This document shows, piece by piece, positions 3-61,539 of a stretch of DNA of 64,000 bases. Each line of letters starts with the position of its first letter. The stretch's first letter is position 1. A program made the translations under genes and the position numbers. The DNA is taken from assembly GCA_041659225.1 (NCBI GenBank), contig JBAZYR010000004.1:9867-73866 (forward strand). The letters run 5' to 3'. The notes below the pieces were generated by a model. That model saw only the letters and a list, made by a program, of their open reading frames with translations, did not search any database and was not told the origin of the DNA. Source of the DNA: Candidatus Staskawiczbacteria bacterium. GTDB taxonomy: Bacteria > Patescibacteriota > Minisyncoccia > Minisyncoccales > Staskawiczbacteraceae.

Positions 3-992
3 AAAGATCCGAACTTTACAGGAGAGGATGTTAGAGAGGGATTAACTTCCGTTGTCTTGGTAAAAATACGGAATCCGCAGTTTGAGGGCCAGACAAAGGC
101 AAAACTTGGGAACCCAGAAGCAAAGAATGCAGTTGAGTCAGCTGTCGCAGAAGCCTTGAGCGACTATTTAGAAAGATTCCCGTCTGATGCGAAAGCAATA
201 ATCGAGAATTGTCTTTTAGCAGCTAAGGCCAGAGAAGCAGCCAAGAGCGCCCGGCAGACAGTTCTAAGGAAAGGAGTTTTGGAAGGATTGGCTCTTCCCG
301 GCAAACTAGCAGATTGTCTTTCCCGAAATCCAGAAGAAAGCGAGCTTTACATAGTGGAGGGAGAATCAGCCGGAGGAAGCGGAAGGCAAGCCAGAGATAG
401 GCATTTCCAAGCAGTATTACCTTTGAGAGGTAAGATTTTGAACGTTGAAAGAGCTCGCTTAGACAAGATGTTGGACTCCAAAGAGGTTCGGGCATTGGTT
501 ATTGCCCTAGGAACTGCTATAGGAGAAGACTTCTCAATAGAGAAGCTAAGATACCATCGGATTATTATCATGACTGATGCTGATGTGGACGGTTCGCATA
601 TCCGAACATTGCTTTTGACTCTATTCTATCGGCACTTCAAACCAATTATTGACGCAGGCTATCTATACATTGCTCAGCCACCTTTGTTCAGGATACAGTC
701 TGGAAAAGATATACGATGGGCGTATAACGAGGAGAATAAAGAGAGGATATTAAAGGAGTTGAACAAAACACAGGGCGTTTCGATTCAACGCTACAAAGGT
801 CTTGGAGAGATGAATGCTGAACAGCTTTGGGAAACAACAATGAATCCTGCAAATAGATTGTTGCTCCGCGTCCAAGTTGATGAAGCCAGGGAGGCAGATA
901 AGATATTCGATATCTTAATGGGGGAGGAGGTGCTGCCAAGAAAGAAGTTTATACAAACACACGCCAAATCCGTAAGAAATTTGGATATATAA
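3..992 (+). CDS. gyrB: DNA gyrase subunit B, C-terminal part (5' end upstream of window)
   Basis: Frame is open from the window edge. TOPRIM motifs [13 protein letters not shown] and [13 protein letters not shown]-terminal [10 protein letters not shown]. Stop at 990-992. Confidence 0.95.
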
Positions 993-1484
993 ATGGCTCA
1001 AAGAGTTTTTACACAAACGTTTGGGGTTGTCGGAGCGATAGTTGAGAAAGAGGGAAAGATTCTTTTGGTAAGAGAATCTCAAAAGAAAGGCCCGGACGAC
1101 GGAAAATGGAACCATCCGGCAGGATGGATAGAAGTAGGTGAAGATCCGATCGAAGGGGTAAAAAGGGAAACAGAAGAAGAAACAGGGTTTTCTTTTATTC
1201 CGACTCATGTTTTAGGAATATATTCTCTTGTAAGGAAAGATTTGGAACGCCTAGTGGGAGAAATCCATCACCCCGTCAAGATCATTTTTATCGGGACGAT
1301 TTCTGAAGACATGAAAAGAGAATTGGAAGATGACGTTACGGAAACGAGGTGGTTCACTCCAGAAGAGATAGAGGCAATGGGCCCAGAAACTCTCCGGGAT
1401 GTTGATATCAAAGGGATAGCCAAAGATTATTTCAATGGCCGTAAGTATCCATTAGATCTCTTAAAACACACGATACAAGAATAA
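993..1484 (+). CDS. NUDIX hydrolase
   Basis: Nudix box GWIEVGEDPIEGVKRETEEETG. ATG directly abuts the gyrB stop. Confidence 0.85.
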   Translation: MAQRVFTQTFGVVGAIVEKEGKILLVRESQKKGPDDGKWNHPAGWIEVGEDPIEGVKRETEEETGFSFIPTHVLGIYSLVRKDLERLVGEIHHPVKIIFIGTISEDMKRELEDDVTETRWFTPEEIEAMGPETLRDVDIKGIAKDYFNGRKYPLDLLKHTIQE

Positions 1485-1528
1485 AAGGCTTGACTTTTTT
1501 CTGTTATCTGGTTAATCTCTATTTATAG

Positions 1529-1548
1529 ATGGCCAGCGGGCCATTTTT
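1529..1548 (+). terminator. Rho-independent terminator after the NUDIX gene
   Basis: ATGGCC-agcg-GGCCAT hairpin followed by TTTTT. Confidence 0.6.
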
Positions 1549-1565
1549 AAATCCGCGAGTATTTG

Positions 1566-1594
1566 TTGACTTCCGCCCGTAATATTACTATTAT
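1566..1594 (+). promoter_or_regulatory. Sigma70-like promoter for secE-nusG-rplK
   Basis: TTGACT, 17-nt spacer, TATTAT. The -10 ends 9 nt before the secE ATG, implying a near-leaderless mRNA. Confidence 0.5.
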
Positions 1595-1603
1595 TATTTC
1601 AAT

Positions 1604-1810
1604 ATGGTTAAACTCAATAATATTCCAGCCAAAATTAAGAGCTTCTTGAAGGAAGTGTATTTAGAATTGAAAAAAGTAAGCTGGCTTAGCCGCAAAGAGC
1701 TTTTAAAATACACAGTAATTGTTATCCTTCTAACGCTGTTGACCGCCGCCTTTTTAGGAGGCTTAGACTATATATTTTCGACTCTATTAAAGAAATTCAT
1801 ACTTCAATAA
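1604..1810 (+). CDS. secE: Preprotein translocase subunit SecE
   Basis: 68 aa with ELKKVSWLSRKE motif and one C-terminal TM helix. Conserved position before nusG. Confidence 0.8.
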   Translation: MVKLNNIPAKIKSFLKEVYLELKKVSWLSRKELLKYTVIVILLTLLTAAFLGGLDYIFSTLLKKFILQ

Positions 1811-2356
1811 ATGCCGAAACAGATAGTAGAACAAAGTAGAAATTGGTACGTGATCCACACTTATTCTGGCTACGAGGATGCTGTTGCAAAAAACCTGAAA
1901 CAAAGGATAGAATCTTTGGGTATGGAAGACTATATATTCAACGTAATAGTTCCTAAGGAAAAGAAGATAAAAATCAAGAACGGAAAGAGGAAAGTAACTG
2001 AAGAAAAGATTTATCCTGGCTACGTACTCGTTGAGATGACAGTAACCGATGCTTCTTGGTATGTTGTCAGAAACACCCCTCGAGTTACCGGATTTATCGG
2101 CGCAGGAACAACTCCTTTACCAGTTTCAAAAGAAGAAGTAGACTACTTAATGAAGAGAATGGAAGTTAAGGAACCTGACTTCAAGATTGATATTGAGATT
2201 GATTCTGTGGTAAAAATATCTGACGGACCATTCAAGGGTTTTGAAGGAAAAGTTTCAGGGATTGATCCTGAAAAGGGCAAAGTCAAAGTACTTGTTAATA
2301 TGTTCGGCCGCGATACCTCTGTCGAACTAGATTCCCTACAGATTAAAAAACTTTAA
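1811..2356 (+). CDS. nusG: Transcription termination/antitermination factor NusG
   Basis: [12 protein letters not shown]-terminal NGN motif, C-terminal KOW-like segment, secE-nusG-rplK synteny. Confidence 0.95.
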
Positions 2357-2361
2357 ATAAC

Positions 2362-2784
2362 ATGGCAAAGCAAATAAAGACGATTGTAAAACTGCAAATA
2401 CAAGCCGCAAAGGCTAATCGCGCCCCTCCAGTCGGGCCGGCTTTAGCTCCGCACGGTTTGAATATTTCTGAATTCTGTCAGAAATTCAACGACGCCACAA
2501 AAGATCAAGCAGGTTTTCTAATTCCAGTTGAGGTTACAATTTATGTTGATAGAACGTATTCTCTAAAATTCAGAAAGCCACCAGCTTCAGAATTATTGAG
2601 AAAAGCTGCCGGGATTGAAAAAGGATCAGGCCAGCCGAATAAAACTAAGGTTGCCAAGATCACGAAAGCTCAACTCCAGGAAATTGCCAAGACTAAAATG
2701 CCTGATTTGAACACCACCGACATCGAAGCCGCAATGAAAGTAATCGCAGGAACCGCAAGACAGATGGGGATCGATATTGTTTAG
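2362..2784 (+). CDS. rplK: 50S ribosomal protein L11
   Basis: [26 protein letters not shown] matches the L11 N-terminal signature. 140 aa. Confidence 0.95.
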
Positions 2785-2807
2785 TAATTTTAAGTTTAAA
2801 TTATCTC

Positions 2808-3338
2808 ATGCGTCCCTCAAAAGACCAGTACTATCTAGGTATTGCTAAAGAAATAGGCGACAGAAGCGCCTGTTTTAGACACAAATGTGGTGCTATAATC
2901 GTTCACGATGATCAAATTATTGCTACCGGATATATTGGCGCTCCTCGGAAGACAAAAGACTGCCTAGAGAGAGGAGAATGCTTAAGGGATAAATTAAAAA
3001 TTCCGCATGGCACGCGGTATGAAATCTGTAGAAGCGTGCATGCTGAAATGAACGCCATAATCAACGCCGCCCGCGCGGGCGTAAGCCTTTTAGGCGGAGA
3101 TATGTTTATCCATAGTTTGGACCCAAAGACCGGAGAGAAGAATAATTCCTTTCCGTGTTTTTTTTGCAAGAGGATGATTATAAACGCGGGATTGCAGAGA
3201 GTGGTTTGCCATACCAATACAGGGGATATAAAAGTATTTATGGTTAGTGATTGGATTGAAGACTGGCGTGAACGGGATATTTGCGACGATCAACATCAAT
3301 ATGGCGCCGATCGGAATATTAAAGAAAATTTATCCTAA
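2808..3338 (+). CDS. dCMP (deoxycytidylate) deaminase
   Basis: Zinc motifs HAEMNAI and PCFFCKRMI. Adjacent to tmk and the thyX-like gene. Confidence 0.85.
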   Translation: MRPSKDQYYLGIAKEIGDRSACFRHKCGAIIVHDDQIIATGYIGAPRKTKDCLERGECLRDKLKIPHGTRYEICRSVHAEMNAIINAARAGVSLLGGDMFIHSLDPKTGEKNNSFPCFFCKRMIINAGLQRVVCHTNTGDIKVFMVSDWIEDWRERDICDDQHQYGADRNIKENLS

Positions 3339-3340
3339 TA

Positions 3341-3976
3341 ATGATTAAGAATAACTATCCCGGTAAATTTATTGTGTTCGAAGGTCTCGATGGCTCAGGC
3401 CAAAGTACGCAAGCGGGGAAGTTATTCGATTTTCTTAATTTACCGGAACAGAAACTTAAATTCGGGCATACCGGAGTTCATCTGACCAAAGAACCTACGT
3501 CGAGTTTAATCGGGGGATTAATAAGGAGCCAGCTGACGCACGAATGGAAATCTTCACAGAACTGCCTCCAACTGCTATTTTCTGCCGACAGGGCGAATCA
3601 TTTAGAAAAAGAAATAATCCCCTTGCTCGAGCGTGGTATAACAGTTGTTTGCGACAGATATTTCTTTTCTACCATTGCTTACGGTTCGTTGGACATAAAA
3701 GACAGAGAGTGGCTTGTCAATTTAAATAAGAATTTCCTTTTTCCCGACATTACATTCTTGCTTAAGGTTTCTCCCCGAATCTGCATGGAGAGGATACAGA
3801 AGACGAGATATGAGATTAATCTTTTCGAAAGGGAAGAAATGCTGACGAGGGTTTGGGAAAATTTTGACCGGCTGGCCAAAGAATTTGAAAAAGTTCACGT
3901 AATACAAGGAGAAGGACCATTAGAAAAAATTCATCAAGAAATAGTCCAAATACTTACTAACAAATTAACTCAATAA
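3341..3976 (+). CDS. tmk: Thymidylate kinase
   Basis: P-loop FIVFEGLDGSGQSTQ and DRY-type motif CDRYFFS. Confidence 0.9.
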   Translation: MIKNNYPGKFIVFEGLDGSGQSTQAGKLFDFLNLPEQKLKFGHTGVHLTKEPTSSLIGGLIRSQLTHEWKSSQNCLQLLFSADRANHLEKEIIPLLERGITVVCDRYFFSTIAYGSLDIKDREWLVNLNKNFLFPDITFLLKVSPRICMERIQKTRYEINLFEREEMLTRVWENFDRLAKEFEKVHVIQGEGPLEKIHQEIVQILTNKLTQ

Positions 3977-53462: not shown

Positions 53463-53813
53463 ATGGTTGAATTTATAGCTTTAATAATTTTCGTCATTAG
53501 TTTTGGTGGAGTAATCTTCATCCTCGTTAAGAAGATGCCAATACTCGAGCAACTTCCGGAAGTTCACGAAGGGGCCAAGAAGGAAAAAGTTGTTCATGTT
53601 TTGAGAGATAGATTAAAAGGTTATTCTCCCGATAAGGTTATCTTGCTTAAAGCACTTTCTCGGATTAGGGTTGTAGTCCTTAAGATTGAGAAGCAAATTG
53701 ATGGGTGGTTGCAGAAGATGAGAAAAAAGATAGTTGCCCAAAAGAAAATAGAGGATCAGAGAAAAGAAGACAGCAACTCTAAAAGTATTAAACCACCTTC
53801 TACGCCGGAGTAG
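53463..53813 (+). CDS. Hypothetical membrane-anchored protein, 116 aa
   Basis: One N-terminal TM helix and a Lys-rich tail. The last 10 nt overlap tRNA-Thr. Confidence 0.4.
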   Translation: MVEFIALIIFVISFGGVIFILVKKMPILEQLPEVHEGAKKEKVVHVLRDRLKGYSPDKVILLKALSRIRVVVLKIEKQIDGWLQKMRKKIVAQKKIEDQRKEDSNSKSIKPPSTPE

Positions 53814-53875
53814 CTCAACGGTAGAGCAGCACTTTTGTAAAGTGAAGGTTGGGGGTTCGATTCCTCTCTCCGGCT
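53804..53875 (+). tRNA. tRNA-Thr (anticodon UGU)
   Basis: Cloverleaf folded by hand: acceptor GCCGGAG/CTCCGGC, D arm GCTC..GAGC, anticodon loop TTTGTAA, T loop TTCGATT. CCA not encoded. Confidence 0.85.
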
Positions 53876-55550: not shown

Positions 55551-56445
55551 CTACTAATACTCAGCGTATTAGATATTTTTTTTGAGAGTTTGATCCTAGC
55601 TCAGGGTGAACGCTGGTAACGTGGATAAGGCATGCAAGTCGAACGGGCTGTAGCAATACAGTCAGTGGCGAACGGGTTAGTAACACGTAGGTACCAACCT
55701 CCGAGATGAGAATAACCCATCGAAAGATGGGCTAATACTCAATAGTCCCACTCCGCAAGGAAATGGGTAAAGGTTCGCAAGAGCCGCTCAGAGATGGGCC
55801 TGCGGCCTATCAGCTTGTTGGCAGGGTAAAAGCCTACCAAGGCTATGACGGGTAGGGGGCGTGAGAGCGTGTCCCCCAACAATGGCACTGCGACACGGGC
55901 CATACTCCTACGGGAGGCTGCAGTCGAGAATCTTCCACAATGGGCGAAAGCCTGATGGAGCGACGTTACGTGAATGAAGAAGCCCTTCGGGGTGTAAAAT
56001 TCTTTTTTAGGGGAGGAAGTTGCCTTCGGGTAACTGACAGTACCTTAAGAATAAGGGGATCCTAATTCTGTGCCAGCAGGAGCGGTAATACAGAATCCCC
56101 GAGCGTTACCCGGAATTACTGGGCGTAAAGGGTCCGTAGGTGGTTAAGATAGTCTTTGGTTAAAACTCATCGGCTCAACCTTTGAGCTGCCGAAGATACT
56201 TCTTAACTCGAGGACGTTAGAGGCTAACGGAACCGACGGTGTAGGGGTGAAATCCGTTGATATCGTCGGGAACACCAAAAGCGAAGGCAGTTAGCTGGGA
56301 CGATCCTGACACTGAGGGACGAAAGCGTGGGGATCAAAAAGGATTAGATACCCTTGTAGTCCACGCTGTAAACGATGACCACTAGCTATTGGCAGTGTCG
56401 ACCCTGTCGGTGGCGAAGCTAACGCGTTAAGTGATCCGCCTGGGA

Positions 56446-56477
<32 letters not shown>

Positions 56478-56611
56478 AGACGGGGACTCACACAAGCGGT
56501 GGACCATGTGGCTCAATTCGACAACAAACGAAGAACCTTACCAGGGCTTGAAATTCCGTTGAAATCCCGATGAAAGTTGGGACCCCCACAAGGCAGCGGA
56601 ACAGGTACTGC

Positions 56612-57328
56612 ATGGTTGATGCTTTACTTTCTTATTCACAATCTGAAAGAAAGCACACGACCCCTTCTCGAGTAATCGAGATTGCAAAACCAGCTCATAA
56701 CGGTGAAACCTTCAAGTTTTATGTTAAAATTAATATACAAACTAATGGTAATACCGTGGGAAGTATAAGTACTAATTTTTGTAATTTTTTCTCTAAAATA
56801 GAAGATTCGTATATCTTAGGTCTTTGGTGCGCGGATAGCTATTGGTGGTCTAGTTCAGTCGGATTAAGCAATACCGATGACAAATTAATTGGTGAATTCA
56901 GAAAATTTTTGAAGAAAATTTTCCCTGAAGAAAGAATCAAATTTAATCGAAACCATATTTTCGTCAATAGTCGTCCGCTACTCAGAGAATTTATATCGGC
57001 AAAGGCGAGTTTAGACAGGTTGGAAGACCCTGATATAATTAAAGCATATTTCGCCGGACGGTTTGACGGTGATGGCTCGATTGATAAAAACCTAAGAAAT
57101 GATTGCAGGATAGTTTATGGGAGAAAGGAGGAAGCTGAAATGGATAAGAAACTTCTTGGGAAGATTAGAATTAGTAACACTAAAATTTATTACTATAAAG
57201 GAGCAAGAACATTTTGCCTTTATATTTCTAGATACCAGGCAAAGGAATTCCTTGGAAATATTTATCCTTATTCAATAAAATTACAGAAATTAGTACTTGT
57301 ACCCCGTAGAGACTTAGTTTTCCACTAA
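56612..57328 (+). CDS. LAGLIDADG-family homing endonuclease (two-motif, monomeric type)
   Basis: ILGLWCADSYWW and KAYFAGRFDGDGSI motifs. The only upstream in-frame ATG outside pure rRNA sequence is the ATG of the exon GCATGG at the junction. Confidence 0.8.
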   Translation: MVDALLSYSQSERKHTTPSRVIEIAKPAHNGETFKFYVKINIQTNGNTVGSISTNFCNFFSKIEDSYILGLWCADSYWWSSSVGLSNTDDKLIGEFRKFLKKIFPEERIKFNRNHIFVNSRPLLREFISAKASLDRLEDPDIIKAYFAGRFDGDGSIDKNLRNDCRIVYGRKEEAEMDKKLLGKIRISNTKIYYYKGARTFCLYISRYQAKEFLGNIYPYSIKLQKLVLVPRRDLVFH

Positions 57329-57442
57329 CAAAGGACGGAGAACTTAATAGCTTACCATGCTATTACACGCTGGTCCCCTAATCCCGCTTTGCGGGACGGG
57401 TGATGGTATAGTCCATACTTTTGGAAACAAGAGAACAATATG
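56618..57442 (+). mobile_element. Intervening sequence / intron-like insertion in 16S carrying a homing endonuclease gene
   Basis: Conserved GCATGGYTGTCGTCAGC is split as GCATGGTT | insert | GTCGTCAGC. The boundary is ambiguous by a few nt because ATGGT is repeated at both junctions. Confidence 0.8.
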
Positions 57443-57981
57443 GTCGTCAGCTCGTGTCTTGAGACGTACCGTTAATTCGGGTAACGAGCGCAACCCTTGT
57501 CTTATGTTTTATATGTCATAAGAGACTGCCCGGGATAACTGGGAGGAAGGTGAGGATGACGCCAAATCAGCATGGTCCTTTGATGCCCTGGGCCGCACAC
57601 GTGGTACAATGGCCGGTACAATGGGTTTGCCAACCCGAAAGGGGGAGCTAATCCCACCAAAACCGGTCTCAGTTCGGATTGAGGGCTGAAACCCGCCCTC
57701 ATGAAGCCGGAATCGCTAGTAATCGCCGATCAGCTACGCGGCGATGAATATGTTCCTGAGTCTTGTACTCACCGCCCGTCACGCCAAGCGAGCTGGGAAC
57801 AGCCGAAATTCCTCGCAAGGGGACTTAAGCTGGGCTCAGTAAGAGGGGCGAAGTCGTAACAAGGCACGGGTAGCGGAAGCTGCTCGTGGATCAATTTTTT
57901 TTATTTTTTTGTCGACTTAGGTTGAAATCGAAAATTTGGATTTCAACTTAAAAGCGTTTGGGGTGAATCGCTTGAAATTCA

Positions 57982-58010
57982 CCTATTCGAAACAACTTTA
58001 AGAAACTAAA
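57982..58010 (+). promoter_or_regulatory. 3' strand of the pre-16S processing stem
   Basis: CCTATTCGAAACAACTTTAAGAAACTAAA, complementary to 55522-55550. Confidence 0.8.
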
Positions 58011-58086
58011 CAAAGAATCCGGAACTGTTTTCGGGTTTTTTGTTTATATGCTTGAAAAGCTAGAGAAAAAAGGTAAGATGTAGTTA

Positions 58087-58380
58087 ATGATATGGAAATA
58101 TTTTTCTTATTTTCTTGTAGGATTTATAGGGTTTGCGATTGGACGAGTAGGGCATATTCTTGGGGGACAGGTTGCTTGGATTCCGCACCATTGGATATTC
58201 GGATTAATACTTCTGTCTGCCGGGTTAGTATGTTTACTCTTTAAGCGAGGTAGAAACATCGGATATTATCTTATATTTTTCGGCGCAGGTGTGTTTATAA
58301 GCGACTTTAGGGATTTCACGCTTGGAAGAGTGTGGGAATTGGATGATGTAACAATATTAAAATTTTGGGGAGTAGATTAA
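58087..58380 (+). CDS. Hypothetical small membrane protein between 16S and tRNA-Ala
   Basis: 97 aa with three hydrophobic helices. Confidence 0.5.
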   Translation: MIWKYFSYFLVGFIGFAIGRVGHILGGQVAWIPHHWIFGLILLSAGLVCLLFKRGRNIGYYLIFFGAGVFISDFRDFTLGRVWELDDVTILKFWGVD

Positions 58381-58388
58381 AATTTATT

Positions 58389-58460
58389 GGGCCCTTAGTT
58401 CAGTGGTAGAACGCCTCATTTGCAATGAGGAGATCACCGGTTCGAGTCCGGTAGGGTCCA
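58389..58460 (+). tRNA. tRNA-Ala (anticodon UGC)
   Basis: Acceptor GGGCCCT/AGGGTCC with the G3:U70 identity pair, anticodon loop TTTGCAA, T loop TTCGAGT. CCA not encoded. Confidence 0.9.
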
Positions 58461-58554
58461 CAATTTGGCGCAACATTTTGGACACAAGCAAGTTGTAAAA
58501 AGCCTGTTTTTGTTTGAAGTGTGGATAGTATTGACACGTGTTGCAGATTATTCA

Positions 58555-58563
58555 TGGTACAAT
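58555..58563 (+). promoter_or_regulatory. Extended -10 element TGGTACAAT placed for a leaderless transcript
   Basis: The -10 ends 6 nt before the A of the ATG at 58570. Confidence 0.4.
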
Positions 58564-58569
58564 GCAGTC

Positions 58570-61539
58570 ATGCGTATATATCCCATTTTATTCGTATTAG
58601 CCATCGTTGCCCTCTTGGTTGCCATCGGCATTCTTTTCAAGGTTATTCCTTGGATGCAACCTGCCTCCGTGCTTAACCCGACCTCCGTAATGCTTAATTT
58701 ATTGTTCAACGGAAACATGGATGATTCCTCCGGTCATGGAAACAACGCTGTCTGCTCCGGAACCTGTCCGTCATACCTGGCCAGCGGGGGTTTACTCGGT
58801 AGCGGTGCTTACTCTTTTGACGGCACTACCAACTATTTGGCCGTTGCCAATAATTCCAACATCAATCTTACTGACAATTTCAGCTTGACGGCCTGGGTTA
58901 AGACCAACTCTGATCCGGCGACTGATGAATGGCAGGGGATTTTGGTTAAAGGTACAAATGATAGCCAGCGGTCCTGGAGTCTTTACCTCCACTACAAAGC
59001 CGTGGAAATTCAATGGTTAAACGGCACTTGGCAATCTTTCAGCGCAGCCTCGGCAAACATTCAATCTAACCAATGGTATCAAATTGTTTACACTAAGAAC
59101 GGAGCCAATCAGGCGATTTATCTGAATGGCGTTCCTTTGTCGACCTCAGGCAGCTCTGCAACCATGATTGCCAATAATGATCCGCTGTATATCGGTGGCA
59201 ATGCCATTTATCCTGAGGAACGATTCAATGGCGTTATCGACAGCTTGCGGATCGTCAACCAGGTTCTTTCACCGGCCGAAGTAAGTACTCTTTATCAGGA
59301 GGACCAAACACAACCTCCTTCTGGCGATACCAATTGCGTTAAAGCAGACGTTAATACTAGTGGTGAAGTTGATAATTTTGACGTTCTTTTTGTTCGAGGC
59401 CAATTAAGGTGTGATATAGGTGCTGGTGCACCTAATTGTGTCAAAGCAGACGTTAATACTAGCGGTAAAGTTGATAATTTTGACGTTCTTTTTGTTCGAG
59501 GCCAAATGGGCTGCACCGTGCCGCAACAGTACTCCATTGTCGCCACGGCTGGCGCTGGTGGGACAATCGATCCTATTGGCACGGTCACTGTCAACTCAGG
59601 AGATACCAAGACCTTTGCTATTAGTCCTGATGCAACCCATCAAATAAACCAGGTGGTAGTTGATGGCCTCGAGAAAGGAGCAATTTCGACTTTCACTTTT
59701 TCCGATATAACTGTCAATCATACTATCAGCGCAAGTTTTAGTTCAGTACCCCAAACGCAGTTGAAGCCAATCGCTCGGTGGGACACCGTGCCTTACCAGA
59801 GGATCGATCCAGCTCACCCCTTGAATCTATCAGTAGTCGCTTTTTCAAAATATGGAATTAACCGTGTCGTCTTCAAGATAAGCGGCGGTGGTTATACCGG
59901 CCTAGACAAAACAGCAACCGCAATGTCGCTCAATCCCCAAACCGGAGTTTGGGAATACTGGGTGCCATTAACGGCCGCCGAATTCGATACTAACAGTGCC
60001 ATCACCGTCGAAGCTACCGTGTATGGAAACGATGGCGGAGTCAGAGACAAAAATACTAACGCTGCTGTTTACGGTTCCGGCCTTAGTCCCGTCACTTTGG
60101 TGGTCGTACCGCAGTCTAACGCCGACCAGTATCAGAGAGCTTATGCTTGGGTTGATAATACAAATGGAAACGATGGTGTCACTAATGCCGTGAGCACAAG
60201 CGTCAATGATCCCGGCGCAGGTAAATATTTCAAGACTATCAACGCGGCTGCCCGGGCCATCCAAACCTATCGTGGCGGTAACGCGGACGGCGCGATGATT
60301 TATGTAAAGAGCGGAACTTACAACACTGCCGGCAGCAACAGCGGGTTCGTTAGGGGCAGCAACGAGTGGCTGACCATTTCGGCAGCACCTGGTTTGGCGA
60401 GAACTGATGTCGTTATCACAGCTGCTAGTGGAATTTATAATATCGAGCGGGCACATGTCCAAGGCCTTACTCTGAGCAATACCTCGAATGGTGCAAGTGT
60501 GATCAAGAATTGTTATCCCGGAGCGAGTTGCGATCCAGCCAACGTTAAGGTCTGGATTGATAACTCTCACATACTTGGCATTGGCCGCTGGCCGGAGGGA
60601 TCTGCAAACGGCGGAATTTACACCGGGCCGGTCAACCCCGATATCCCTGAAGTTTATTGGACCGATAGCGAAGTCAATAAATCAAACTTTGGCGTTTACA
60701 CTCAAAATACGGTCTTGGTCCGGGGCTTGTACATTCACGAAATTAGCAATGATCCCTTCCAGGCGGCACCACTGGTTATTAATACCCGCGTCGACGATGT
60801 CCGCGGAAATTATTTAGACTCACTGGGTAACAAACAACCGCATGCCGATCTTTTCCAGCCCGGGGCAGACGCCGATAATTTTATTATGTACAACGTACGC
60901 GCCACCGGCCTGCATTACGATATTTTTTGGAGTAATATCTATGCTGATGCCGCTACGGCTACCGGCATTGCCTTAGTTAATGTCTTCGCCGAGATTGACC
61001 TGGATCCTAATCCGGCCTATGGCAATAGGCCTGTTGTCTTCGGCGGGATTCTCGGCCAGTACAATCATCTTTTAATGTGGCATAACACCTATATATGGGG
61101 GGCGGGATCCATCCCAAGCGATCATTTGCCTCTAGCGATTTATCTTACCAAAAGTTATCCGGGAAATTTTCGACAATATTCCGTCATCAATAGTTCCTTC
61201 CGGGGAAATTTGTTCGATGCGCTCGGAATCAACAATCTCGACAACGGCGAGCCTTGGTACCAAGAACCTTATCTGACAAACCACGGAGACGAATTTTTGG
61301 ACAACCATTTTGTAAACGTTAACCCGACCGGAGATTATTACCATGGTGCTGCTTACGGTTTAAGATACTCGTCCGGTGATCCGCAAATTAATCGGAATCT
61401 CCAGTCGCCAACAATCGGACAGCCATTGAGCGCCGGTTCACCCTTGGTTAATCGAGAGAATGTTCCTCCTGTACCTGCCGACGCCAATGGCAAAGCGCGG
61501 TCAACTACCGGAGCAACAATTGGGGCATTCGAGTTCTAG
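58570..61539 (+). CDS. Membrane-anchored surface protein: LamG/concanavalin-like lectin domain, two dockerin-like repeats, InlB-B-repeat-like domain, probable beta-helix C-terminal region
   Basis: TM anchor MRIYPILFVLAIVALLVAIGILF. LamG-like FDGTTNYLAV..FSLTAWVK..LYIGGN..FNGVIDSLRI. 2x NCVKADVNTSG(E/K)VDNFDVLFVRGQ. YSIVATAGAGGTIDP..TISASF. Confidence 0.8.
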   Translation: MRIYPILFVLAIVALLVAIGILFKVIPWMQPASVLNPTSVMLNLLFNGNMDDSSGHGNNAVCSGTCPSYLASGGLLGSGAYSFDGTTNYLAVANNSNINLTDNFSLTAWVKTNSDPATDEWQGILVKGTNDSQRSWSLYLHYKAVEIQWLNGTWQSFSAASANIQSNQWYQIVYTKNGANQAIYLNGVPLSTSGSSATMIANNDPLYIGGNAIYPEERFNGVIDSLRIVNQVLSPAEVSTLYQEDQTQPPSGDTNCVKADVNTSGEVDNFDVLFVRGQLRCDIGAGAPNCVKADVNTSGKVDNFDVLFVRGQMGCTVPQQYSIVATAGAGGTIDPIGTVTVNSGDTKTFAISPDATHQINQVVVDGLEKGAISTFTFSDITVNHTISASFSSVPQTQLKPIARWDTVPYQRIDPAHPLNLSVVAFSKYGINRVVFKISGGGYTGLDKTATAMSLNPQTGVWEYWVPLTAAEFDTNSAITVEATVYGNDGGVRDKNTNAAVYGSGLSPVTLVVVPQSNADQYQRAYAWVDNTNGNDGVTNAVSTSVNDPGAGKYFKTINAAARAIQTYRGGNADGAMIYVKSGTYNTAGSNSGFVRGSNEWLTISAAPGLARTDVVITAASGIYNIERAHVQGLTLSNTSNGASVIKNCYPGASCDPANVKVWIDNSHILGIGRWPEGSANGGIYTGPVNPDIPEVYWTDSEVNKSNFGVYTQNTVLVRGLYIHEISNDPFQAAPLVINTRVDDVRGNYLDSLGNKQPHADLFQPGADADNFIMYNVRATGLHYDIFWSNIYADAATATGIALVNVFAEIDLDPNPAYGNRPVVFGGILGQYNHLLMWHNTYIWGAGSIPSDHLPLAIYLTKSYPGNFRQYSVINSSFRGNLFDALGINNLDNGEPWYQEPYLTNHGDEFLDNHFVNVNPTGDYYHGAAYGLRYSSGDPQINRNLQSPTIGQPLSAGSPLVNRENVPPVPADANGKARSTTGATIGAFEF
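59332..59507 (+). repeat. Two near-identical 74-nt direct repeats with 102-nt period encoding dockerin/EF-hand-like segments
   Basis: Copies at 59332-59405 and 59434-59507 differ at only a few positions. Confidence 0.85.

Follow-up and report, generated by a model that had tools for sequence, protein, structure and literature searches.

In a 64,000-nucleotide (nt) stretch of the genome of a Candidatus Staskawiczbacteria bacterium (assembly GCA_041659225.1, contig JBAZYR010000004.1, positions 9,867 to 73,866 of the forward strand), hereafter the window, the 16S rRNA gene is interrupted in helix 34 by an insert of 825 nt. We consider it very probable that this insert belongs to the mobile group I introns, with IA as its type (probably IA3), at a helix-34 site where hundreds of copies are found in 16S rRNA genes of the Candidate Phyla Radiation (CPR), and that its LAGLIDADG homing endonuclease gene starts at the GTG at position 56756.

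The Rfam model for bacterial small subunit rRNA, RF00177, has one match in the window (55578-57901, 1267 bits, model positions 1-1533), giving a 16S gene of 2324 nt that is collinear with the model except for one block. This block, at 56618-57442, interrupts the sequence GCAUGGYUGUCGUCAGC of helix 34, which is universally conserved, and the junctions of the block read ...CTGCATGGTT(56617) / GATGC...CAATATG(57442) / GTCGTCAGCTCGTG or, with longer flanks, ...CAGGTACTGCATGGTT(56617), then GATGCTTTAC ... AACAATATG(57442), then GTCGTCAGCTCGTG. The insert is preceded by U56617, begins with G56618 and ends in G57442, the omega base. In the alignment of a same-site relative, the insertion point falls between positions 1050 and 1051 of the Rfam model, which we take, by reference to the 1055-1070 primer site, to be U1060/G1061 of Escherichia coli. 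A sequence-only reading of the window had described an insert of about 825 nt, following a U, ending in G and situated around E. coli position 1060; the sequence bears out this length and both terminal bases, and the model positions bear out the site on our assumed numbering.

For RNA comparison, GAAA was put in place of the bulk of the open reading frame (ORF), a stretch of 514 nt in the window and of exactly this length in 11 relatives, and 27 same-site introns shortened in this way were aligned (alignment A2); counts of aligned introns and covarying pairs refer to this set unless stated otherwise. Without guidance, RNAalifold returned P1, P2 with a GNRA loop, the long-range P3, P4, P5, P6/P6a, P8 and P9 with a GNRA loop, to which P7, crossing P3 as a pseudoknot, P7.1 and P7.2 were added, giving a full model of 69 pairs. 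In this model, 90.4% of the pair cells are standard, against 35-43% after a shift of the 3' partners by 1-3 columns; both sides have changed in 47 of the 69 pairs, and none of 500 shuffles matches the observed values on any measure. Two pairs covary in P1 (UA/CG and GC/AU), 13 of 16 aligned pairs in P6/P6a and 12 of 14 in P7.1/P7.2, while P3 is formed by nine different complementary strand combinations among the relatives. P6a is a 25-bp helix (56763-56787 with 57278-57302), paired at 25 of 25 positions in the window and in most relatives. The five pairs of P7 are formed in 100% of cells, with one covarying pair and otherwise invariant sequence.

In 31 of 37 automatically parsed introns, P7 and the P3 3' strand are separated by two hairpins, and one more (P8) follows that strand; in the other six, the automatic P3 parse was misled by an earlier ATAACG match in P1. 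The unconstrained minimum free energy (MFE) fold of the full 839 nt (z = -6.1) retains P2, the long-range P3, P4, P5, the P6/P6a helix closing the ORF, P7.1, P7.2, P8 and P9, and the window coordinates of all helices were verified against the sequence (Table 1). The U.G wobble of P1 at the 5' splice site is present in 27 of 27 aligned introns. Moreover, the internal guide sequence tracks the exon polymorphism in 50 introns, exon GGUU or GGCU going with guide GACC or GGCC, respectively (pairings GGUU+G/CGACC, GGCU+A/UGGCC, GGUU+A/UGACC and GGCU+G/CGGCC). A simple guide-sequence finder took spurious earlier matches in the window, L002 and L020, and the alignment-based result was preferred.

The sequence-only reading had suspected a group I intron from two elements, GTAGAGACTTAG (57306-17) and GATGGTATAGTCC (57402-14), resembling the R and S core elements and able to pair as P7, without arriving at a complete core. 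Both are present and kept in the relatives, R comprising J6/7 and the P7 5' strand and S comprising J8/7 and the P7 3' strand, and the fold of the insert RNA that it had called for, run on the 839 nt, retains the helices listed above. The comparative data confirm a complete predicted fold for the insert at the 1060 site, with P1-P9, the P3/P7 pseudoknot and P7.1/P7.2. A P7 with a G-C pair beside a bulged base and a conserved J8/7 are both present (the window J8/7-P7' aligns to the RF00028 consensus GAUAUAGUC), and guanosine binding is a prediction of the model. A pairing of ACGACC with G/GUCGU that appears in MFE folds was considered as P10 and rejected, as it overlaps the P1 strand.

The terminal base of same-site introns is G in 41 of 50 and A in 9 of 50. 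The A-ending introns (L006, L024, L025, L034, L036, L037, L038, L058 and L138) end directly before GTCGTC, and in L058 a terminal G cannot be restored by shifting the boundary by one base, because that intron also starts with A. These nine may be omega-A introns, a condition reported for one Coxiella 23S intron.

Among IA3 introns, the Chlamydomonas Cr.LSU intron, which carries the I-CreI gene, is one of those whose P6 holds a LAGLIDADG gene. The hairpin pair P7.1/P7.2 is the mark of subgroup IA (criteria summarised in PMC3984707), and its presence in the predicted fold places the window intron in this subgroup. Within it, the window intron can probably be assigned to IA3, because introns at the 23S sites L2500 and L2593 are homologues of it and because its LAGLIDADG gene occupies P6, an arrangement described for an IA3.1 intron (PMC6125680).

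Conservation of the fold also bears on the fate of the insert in the rRNA precursor. RNase III-processed intervening sequences occur in bacterial rRNA, probably including CPR 23S rRNA (PMC11270868), a chlamydial 23S group I intron left unspliced is on record, to go by a title cited in the same paper, and the Rfam score of the window intron is under the gathering threshold. On this view, the insert would be cut out without ligation, leaving a fragmented 16S rRNA, or be retained in the mature rRNA. We regard either outcome as extremely improbable, because group I hallmarks that covary are hard to explain without selection for catalysis, and all of them are kept by compensatory change across dozens of lineages. 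In addition, a full ribozyme core is present, the MFE fold of the window copy has no long terminal duplex of RNase III substrate type, the site lies in the decoding region, and CPR rRNA insertions are absent from transcripts according to PMC11270868, which cites Brown et al. 2015 on this point.

The protein encoded in the insert matches Pfam LAGLIDADG_3 (PF14528) with 31.8 bits, against a cut-off of 22.5, in two stretches, so that the hidden Markov model (HMM) search proposed in the sequence-only reading upholds its identification of a two-motif LAGLIDADG endonuclease. The motifs are ILGLWCAD and FAGRFDGD, their Asp residues are invariant or nearly so in the family, and the window ORF keeps every family-invariant residue, both catalytic Asp positions included. 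The ORF has 554 homologues, the best with 71-79% identity; the best 120 of the 554 share 65-79% identity and are mostly 190-200 amino acids (aa) long. AlphaFold2 modelled the 190-aa version with a mean predicted local distance difference test score (pLDDT) of 87.3 and a predicted template modelling score (pTM) of 0.85, the first five residues having pLDDT < 50, and placed the LAGLIDADG helices at residues 15-27 and 92-106. While phmmer found nothing meaningful for the ORF among PDB sequences, structure comparison gave I-DmoI as the best PDB match (E = 4e-8, TM-score 0.64-0.71), with intein endonuclease domains, WhiA and I-SceI next in rank. The predicted structure is a two-motif monomer with an I-DmoI-like fold, an alpha-beta-beta-alpha-beta-beta-alpha pseudo-dimer, whose target would be the intron-less 16S sequence GGTGCTGCATGGTTGTCGTCAGCTCGTG. 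One CPR enzyme, I-ShaI, was shown to cut its own insertion site (PMC11270868).

The mechanically defined ORF extends over 56570-57328 (252 aa), and from the ATG at 56612, in the exon sequence GCATGG, it encodes 238 aa identical to the database protein P0001. The sequence-only reading had given the ORF as 238 aa and this exon ATG as its only plausible start, on the ground that there is no internal Met for about 175 codons. The length from ATG 56612 and the lack of an internal ATG are as described, but an in-frame GTG at 56756 had been overlooked, and homologues, while leaving the insert boundaries as proposed, shift the start to this codon and the best-supported length to 190 aa.

In the family, the N-terminus is M-G-N-T-V-G-S and lies inside the intron, its counterpart in the protein alignment being N-G-N-T-V-G-S in the window. 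Among 36 same-site relatives, 20 read ATG-GGY-AAT-ACC-GTG, two have GTG in place of the canonical ATG, in 11 the conserved GTG is preceded, at a distance of 15-66 nt, by an in-frame ATG (mostly at 15-30 nt, within P5), and in three (L004, L005 and L042) the conserved GTG is the only in-frame start. The conserved GTG is present in 34 of the 36, and the 190 aa that follow from the window copy are the modal length of the family. The window reads ACT-AAT-GGT-AAT-ACC-GTG, without an in-frame canonical ATG, as in L004. In these two introns, the base of P5 (56708-56710/56747-56749) has one C-G pair fewer than in the other 25 aligned introns, or U.U instead; because one G and one C of P5 are missing, the canonical ATG (56745-47) is out of frame, where it meets a stop after seven codons, and the P5 helix is kept despite the change. 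The loss of the in-frame ATG is not an assembly artefact, since an identical ORF was assembled from the independent run SRR6484324. Judging from the alignments, GTG 56756 is the most likely start; that it is used can be argued because it is conserved and is the sole start in three other intact relatives.

Alternatively, the AUG of the conserved 16S GCAUGG could initiate translation (at 56612, or at the upstream ATG 56570), with the rRNA precursor acting as mRNA and being translated across the boundary and through the 5' half of the ribozyme into an exon-tagged protein of 238 or 252 aa; this version predicts the peptide MVDALLSYSQSER. The window frame is open from 56570 across the boundary, in-frame ATGs upstream of codon ~177 occur only in the exon, the canonical internal ATG is lost, and gene callers made such models for P0001, P0040, P0055 and P0101. 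Nevertheless, an exon start appears very improbable to us. A frame kept open from the exon, as expected of an exon-fused ORF, was found only in the window and L037, an in-intron stop closing it in 35 of the 36 relatives (in L004, five codons ahead of AAT). Among the 119 listed protein clusters besides P0001, only P0040, P0055 and P0101 are called from the exon ATG, and P0035, P0052 and P0090 are called from the GTG position. When the 138 nt (46 codons) upstream of the GTG were shuffled, the frame was open in 3.5% of trials, about the frequency among the relatives. The extension is a translation of P1ext-P2-P3-P4-P5, its peptide similarity follows the conservation of the RNA helices, with indels, and 190 aa suffice for a complete fold of I-DmoI size, whose first residues are poorly modelled. 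Moreover, the G of the AUG is paired in P1, as are the four bases after it, and the excised intron would not contain the AUG. We conclude that the exon ATG probably owes its place in the ORF to a frame that happens to be open across conserved ribozyme sequence. The public gene call P0001 (window 56612-57328), which starts within the 16S exon, is an annotation artefact.

Several observations tell against an intron of IA3 type with a gene started at GTG 56756. At gathering scores, the only Rfam matches in the whole window are the 16S gene and two tRNAs, and a group I intron is not among them. In permissive scans, the Rfam group I model RF00028 reached 19.0 bits (E = 0.029-0.083) on the window, mainly over J8/7-P7'-P9, so that the model search suggested by the sequence-only reading did return a match, though a weak one that falls short of the gathering score of 50. 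The close relative L001 has no RF00028 match at the gathering score, and the ORF-less 264-nt same-site intron L081 has none even at E <= 1. We do not count these scores against group I identity, because RF00028 found none of the IA3 and IB4 introns of Nawrocki et al. 2018 and its match is broken in two by an ORF in P6 (PMC6125680). L119, a 23S intron with the same core motifs, scores 36.1 bits with RF00028 (E = 2.6e-7) and matches an HMM of the 16S-1060 intron family with E = 2.9e-36. Furthermore, the true P10 has only about 2 bp, splicing is deduced from the predicted fold, and P7.1/P7.2, together with homology to introns of the 23S L2593 type, are the basis of the probable IA3 assignment. 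As for the gene, GTG 56756 sits within the P4 3' strand, no Shine-Dalgarno argument is possible for it because the 16S rRNA of the window lacks the anti-Shine-Dalgarno CCUCC, and the endonuclease may perhaps be unexpressed.

The last point leads to the main alternative to a start at GTG 56756, in which the ribozyme would be functional and the endonuclease gene silent or decaying after a recent loss of its ATG, as a stage in a cycle of gain and loss. In addition to the missing in-frame ATG of the window and L004, relatives with degenerate ORFs could be taken to point in this direction. L021, L032, L049 and L050 have ORFs truncated by premature stops, and three ORF-less same-site introns (L058, L060 and L107) keep the first endonuclease codons (GTACAAGTACTAATTTTTG...) as the P6a stem, and are therefore deletion derivatives of ORF-containing introns. 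To judge from these sequences, the relatives represent every stage of the endonuclease gain-and-loss cycle. For the window copy itself, however, we think a silent gene unlikely, given an ORF of modal length in which all invariant residues are kept, and a GTG that is conserved and suffices as the sole start in three other intact relatives.

With the start at GTG 56756, the gene runs into ribozyme helices at both ends, and the bulk of the ORF is the terminal loop of P6a. The start region of the family coincides with the 3' strands of P5 and P4. Codons 3-11 and the last ~9 conserved codons form P6a, of which the 5' strand encodes G-S-I-S-T-N-F-C-N-F and the 3' strand K-L-Q-K-L-V-L-V; 3' of P6a, the ORF crosses the P6 3' strand, J6/7 and P7 (P-R-R-D-L) before reaching its stop codon in the loop of P7.1. 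The double use of these segments as ribozyme helices explains why the protein is best conserved in its N- and C-terminal peptides. ORFs that reach into the ribozyme core are a known arrangement in which expression must be restrained, as stated in PMC3984707 with reference to work on I-TevI. Since the gene ends form part of the helices, the splicing fold and translation of the endonuclease should exclude each other.

As a working model, the following mechanism may be proposed. In the rRNA precursor, the guide CGACC would pair with the exon end GGUU and the core would fold (P3-P9 and P4-P6, with P7.1/P7.2), after which two guanosine-dependent transesterifications would remove the intron and restore GGUU-GUCGUC. 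The gene in the P6a loop, starting at GTG 56756 in the P4 3' strand, four codons downstream of the ATG of the relatives that is out of frame here, would give rise to a 190-aa I-DmoI-like enzyme that cuts intron-less 16S alleles at the same site and thereby drives homing.

Table 1. Features of the interrupted 16S rRNA gene, its predicted group I ribozyme and the endonuclease gene (window coordinates)
Feature	Position	Strand	Remarks
16S exon 1	55578..56617	+	to E. coli U1060 (presumed numbering), helix 34; Rfam RF00177 and sequence read
Group I intron, IA type (probably IA3), 825 nt	56618..57442	+	G56618 first, omega G57442 last
16S exon 2	57443..57901	+	begins GTCGTCAGC; 3' end without anti-Shine-Dalgarno CCUCC
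Upstream open-frame extension	56570..56755	+	ATG 56570, ATG 56612; exon and ribozyme P1-P5; judged non-coding
Homing endonuclease gene, best-supported extent	56756..57328	+	GTG 56756 to TAA 57326-28; 190 aa
P1	56614..56662	+	exon GGUU and intron G (56614-56618) with guide CGACC (56658-56662); wobble U56617.G56659
P1-extension hairpin within P1	56621-31 with 56645-54	+	
P2 hairpin	56666..56681	+	UCUCGA-GUAA-UCGAGA, GNRA loop; compensatory changes in 6/6 pairs
P3 5' strand	56690..56694	+	CCAGC with GCUGG 57369-57373; pseudoknot with P7; 4/5 pairs covary
P4	56700..56757	+	ACGGUG 56700-05 with UACCGU 56752-57; encloses P5
P5 hairpin within P4	base 56708-10 with 56747-49	+	ACC with GGU; 3' strand is the site of the relatives' canonical ATG
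P6 and P6a 5' strands	56758..56787	+	P6 GGG 56758-60, P6a 56763-87; pairs with 57278-57305
P6a and P6 3' strands	57278..57305	+	P6a 57278-57302, P6 CCC 57303-05
J6/7 and P7 5' strand	57306..57314	+	GUAG-A-GACU with AGUCC 57410-14, bulged A
P7.1	57317-23 with 57337-43	+	loop holds ORF stop TAA 57326-28
P7.2	57345-51 with 57359-65	+	P7.1/P7.2 hairpin pair (57317..57365) between P7 and P3'
P3 3' strand	57369-73	+	
P8	57376-78 with 57398-400	+	inner stem 57383-87 with 57391-95
J8/7	57401-09	+	UGAUGGUAU
P7 3' strand	57410-14	+	AGUCC
P9 hairpin	57418-33	+	CUUUUG-GAAA-CAAGAG; 5/6 pairs covary; Rfam RF00028 alignment spans J8/7-P7'-P9
3' tail	to 57442	+	AACAAUAUG, ending in omega G 57442; closes the 57418..57442 part

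A scan of GTDB species genomes yielded 51 loci, nearly all in Patescibacteria/CPR assemblies and including Nealsonbacteria, Paceibacterota, WWE3, Daviesbacteria and Peregrinibacteria. About 37 of the 51 have a 680-970-nt insert at the identical place (CATGGYY / ... / GYCGTCAG), an exact sharing of the site that answers the comparison across CPR 16S genes proposed in the sequence-only reading. A metagenome scan with the pattern CCGTGGGAAG-N8-38-CCCGTAGAGACT, which is matched only by ORF-less cores, gave at least 120 loci (L052-L171). Among the 120 listed, 13 are introns that lack an ORF, measure 246-461 nt and occupy the same 16S site, and most of the others belong to 23S rRNA or to the 3' end of the 16S. 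The HMM of the 16S-1060 introns matches 115 of the 120 listed loci over nearly its whole length, with a median best E of 2e-25, up to 8 matches per locus and E-values down to 1e-40 for 23S introns. Well over 100 ORF-less introns share this core; they are located in CPR 23S rRNA, with flanks typical of L2500 and L2593, and at the 3' end of the 16S, where the insertion is flanked by GAAGTCGT / ... / AACAAGG (example locus L119, 4-266 and 391-1052). By sequence homology, this is one intron superfamily colonizing many rRNA sites, and the window copy is one member of a very large CPR family. When the intron, minus its ORF, was compared with 50,697 phage records by blastn, only chance matches were obtained, none better than E = 4.

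Introns of this sort have already been described for CPR 16S genes, and the window element represents no new kind of biology; added here are an IA-type structure of the 1060-site family that is supported by covariation, the finding that the two ORF ends are interwoven with P4/P5, P6a, P7 and P7.1, and a corrected start codon. Tsurumaki et al. 2024 reported insertions in 48% of CPR 16S genes, 35% of the insertions matching the group I model, and LAGLIDADG_3 ORFs in 16S insertions only (39, of which 35 in group-I-classified ones), clustered at two sites; ORF-less insertions were common, and spread by homing was proposed (PMC11270868). That insertions with homing endonucleases are established for CPR 16S genes had been pointed out in the sequence-only reading, with reference to Brown et al. 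2015. The window element fits the description of Tsurumaki et al. in every respect: it shares the host clade, the gene, the Pfam family, the site-specific spread over unrelated lineages and the ORF-less copies. The 1060 site is presumably 16IS5 or 16IS10 of that study. The CPR LAGLIDADG proteins are there called mostly single-domain, whereas the window protein was modelled as a two-domain monomer.

The IA3 introns at 23S L2593/L2500 (for example, the archaeal IA3.1; PMC6125680) likewise have P7.1/P7.2 and an ORF looped out of P6, covariance models likewise split them in two around the ORF, and 23S introns from metagenomes share the core motifs of the window family. They differ in residing in 23S rRNA and encoding an I-CreI-like LAGLIDADG_1 homodimer, in contrast to the I-DmoI-like LAGLIDADG_3 monomer predicted at 16S 1060. 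I-DmoI itself, from a Desulfurococcus 23S intron (PDB 1b24, 2vs7), resembles the window protein in being a single chain of ~190 aa with two motifs encoded in an rRNA intron, although the identity is 18-20% and I-DmoI resides in an archaeal bulge-helix-bulge intron, not a group I intron. The td intron of phage T4 with I-TevI is, as summarised in PMC3984707 with citation of Gibb & Edgell 2010 and Edgell et al. 2011, likewise of IA type, with its ORF in the P6 region and ORF ends overlapping core helices; according to the same summary, competition between translation and folding and restrained expression were shown experimentally in that system, whereas in the window they are predicted from the overlap, and td has a GIY-YIG endonuclease and a protein-coding host gene as opposed to LAGLIDADG and an rRNA host. 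In mitochondrial exon-fused intron ORFs, the frame is likewise continuous over the 5' splice site from an upstream exon ATG, but there the exon itself is translated, whereas here the exon is rRNA and such continuity is seen in 1 of 36 relatives.

For annotation, the 190-aa model from GTG 56756 is preferable to the deposited 238-aa P0001. The single group I model of Rfam misses this very abundant family, with or without an ORF, and a family-specific model is needed for annotating CPR rRNA, so as to avoid losing such organisms in 16S surveys. The interleaving of coding sequence and catalytic RNA may offer a clean natural example of translation set against ribozyme folding, and a candidate regulatory mechanism.

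The 16S 3' end of the window (57870-57901) reads ...GCTGCTCGTGGATCAATTTTTTTT, its terminal letters being GGAUCAAUUUUUU, without CCUCC, and the 3' ends of relatives are alike (GGATCACTACATT, GGATCAATACATT). Loss of the anti-Shine-Dalgarno sequence has been published for about half of Parcubacteria (PMC9297842).

Among the relatives, an element ACGCGGAT-WWW-ACGCGGAT between GC-rich hairpins occurs in differing peripheral loops (the P5 loop of L018 and the P1 extension of L123 and L141) and looks like a small mobile repeat. Endonuclease contigs L005, L010, L028, L032, L041 and L045-L047 are titled Nanoarchaeota, Gammaproteobacteria, Pseudomonadales, Actinomycetota, Anaerolineae or Acidobacteriota, several carry a CPR-type 16S intron, and they are probably mis-binned rRNA contigs. 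The 16S gene of L001 spans 3250 nt (490-3740), scores best with the archaeal small subunit model and, because of this span, carries several insertions. L081 has a match to group II intron D1-D4 (1818-1893, 51.8 bits) just beyond the 3' end of its 16S match.

The rRNA genes are unlinked, no 23S being found 3' of the 16S gene (57902-61539). This region begins with a 97-aa membrane-like ORF (58087-58380) and tRNA-Ala(TGC) (58389-58461), followed by a 1024-aa protein with Laminin_G_3/dockerin-like matches, and upstream of the 16S gene lies tRNA-Thr (53804-53875).

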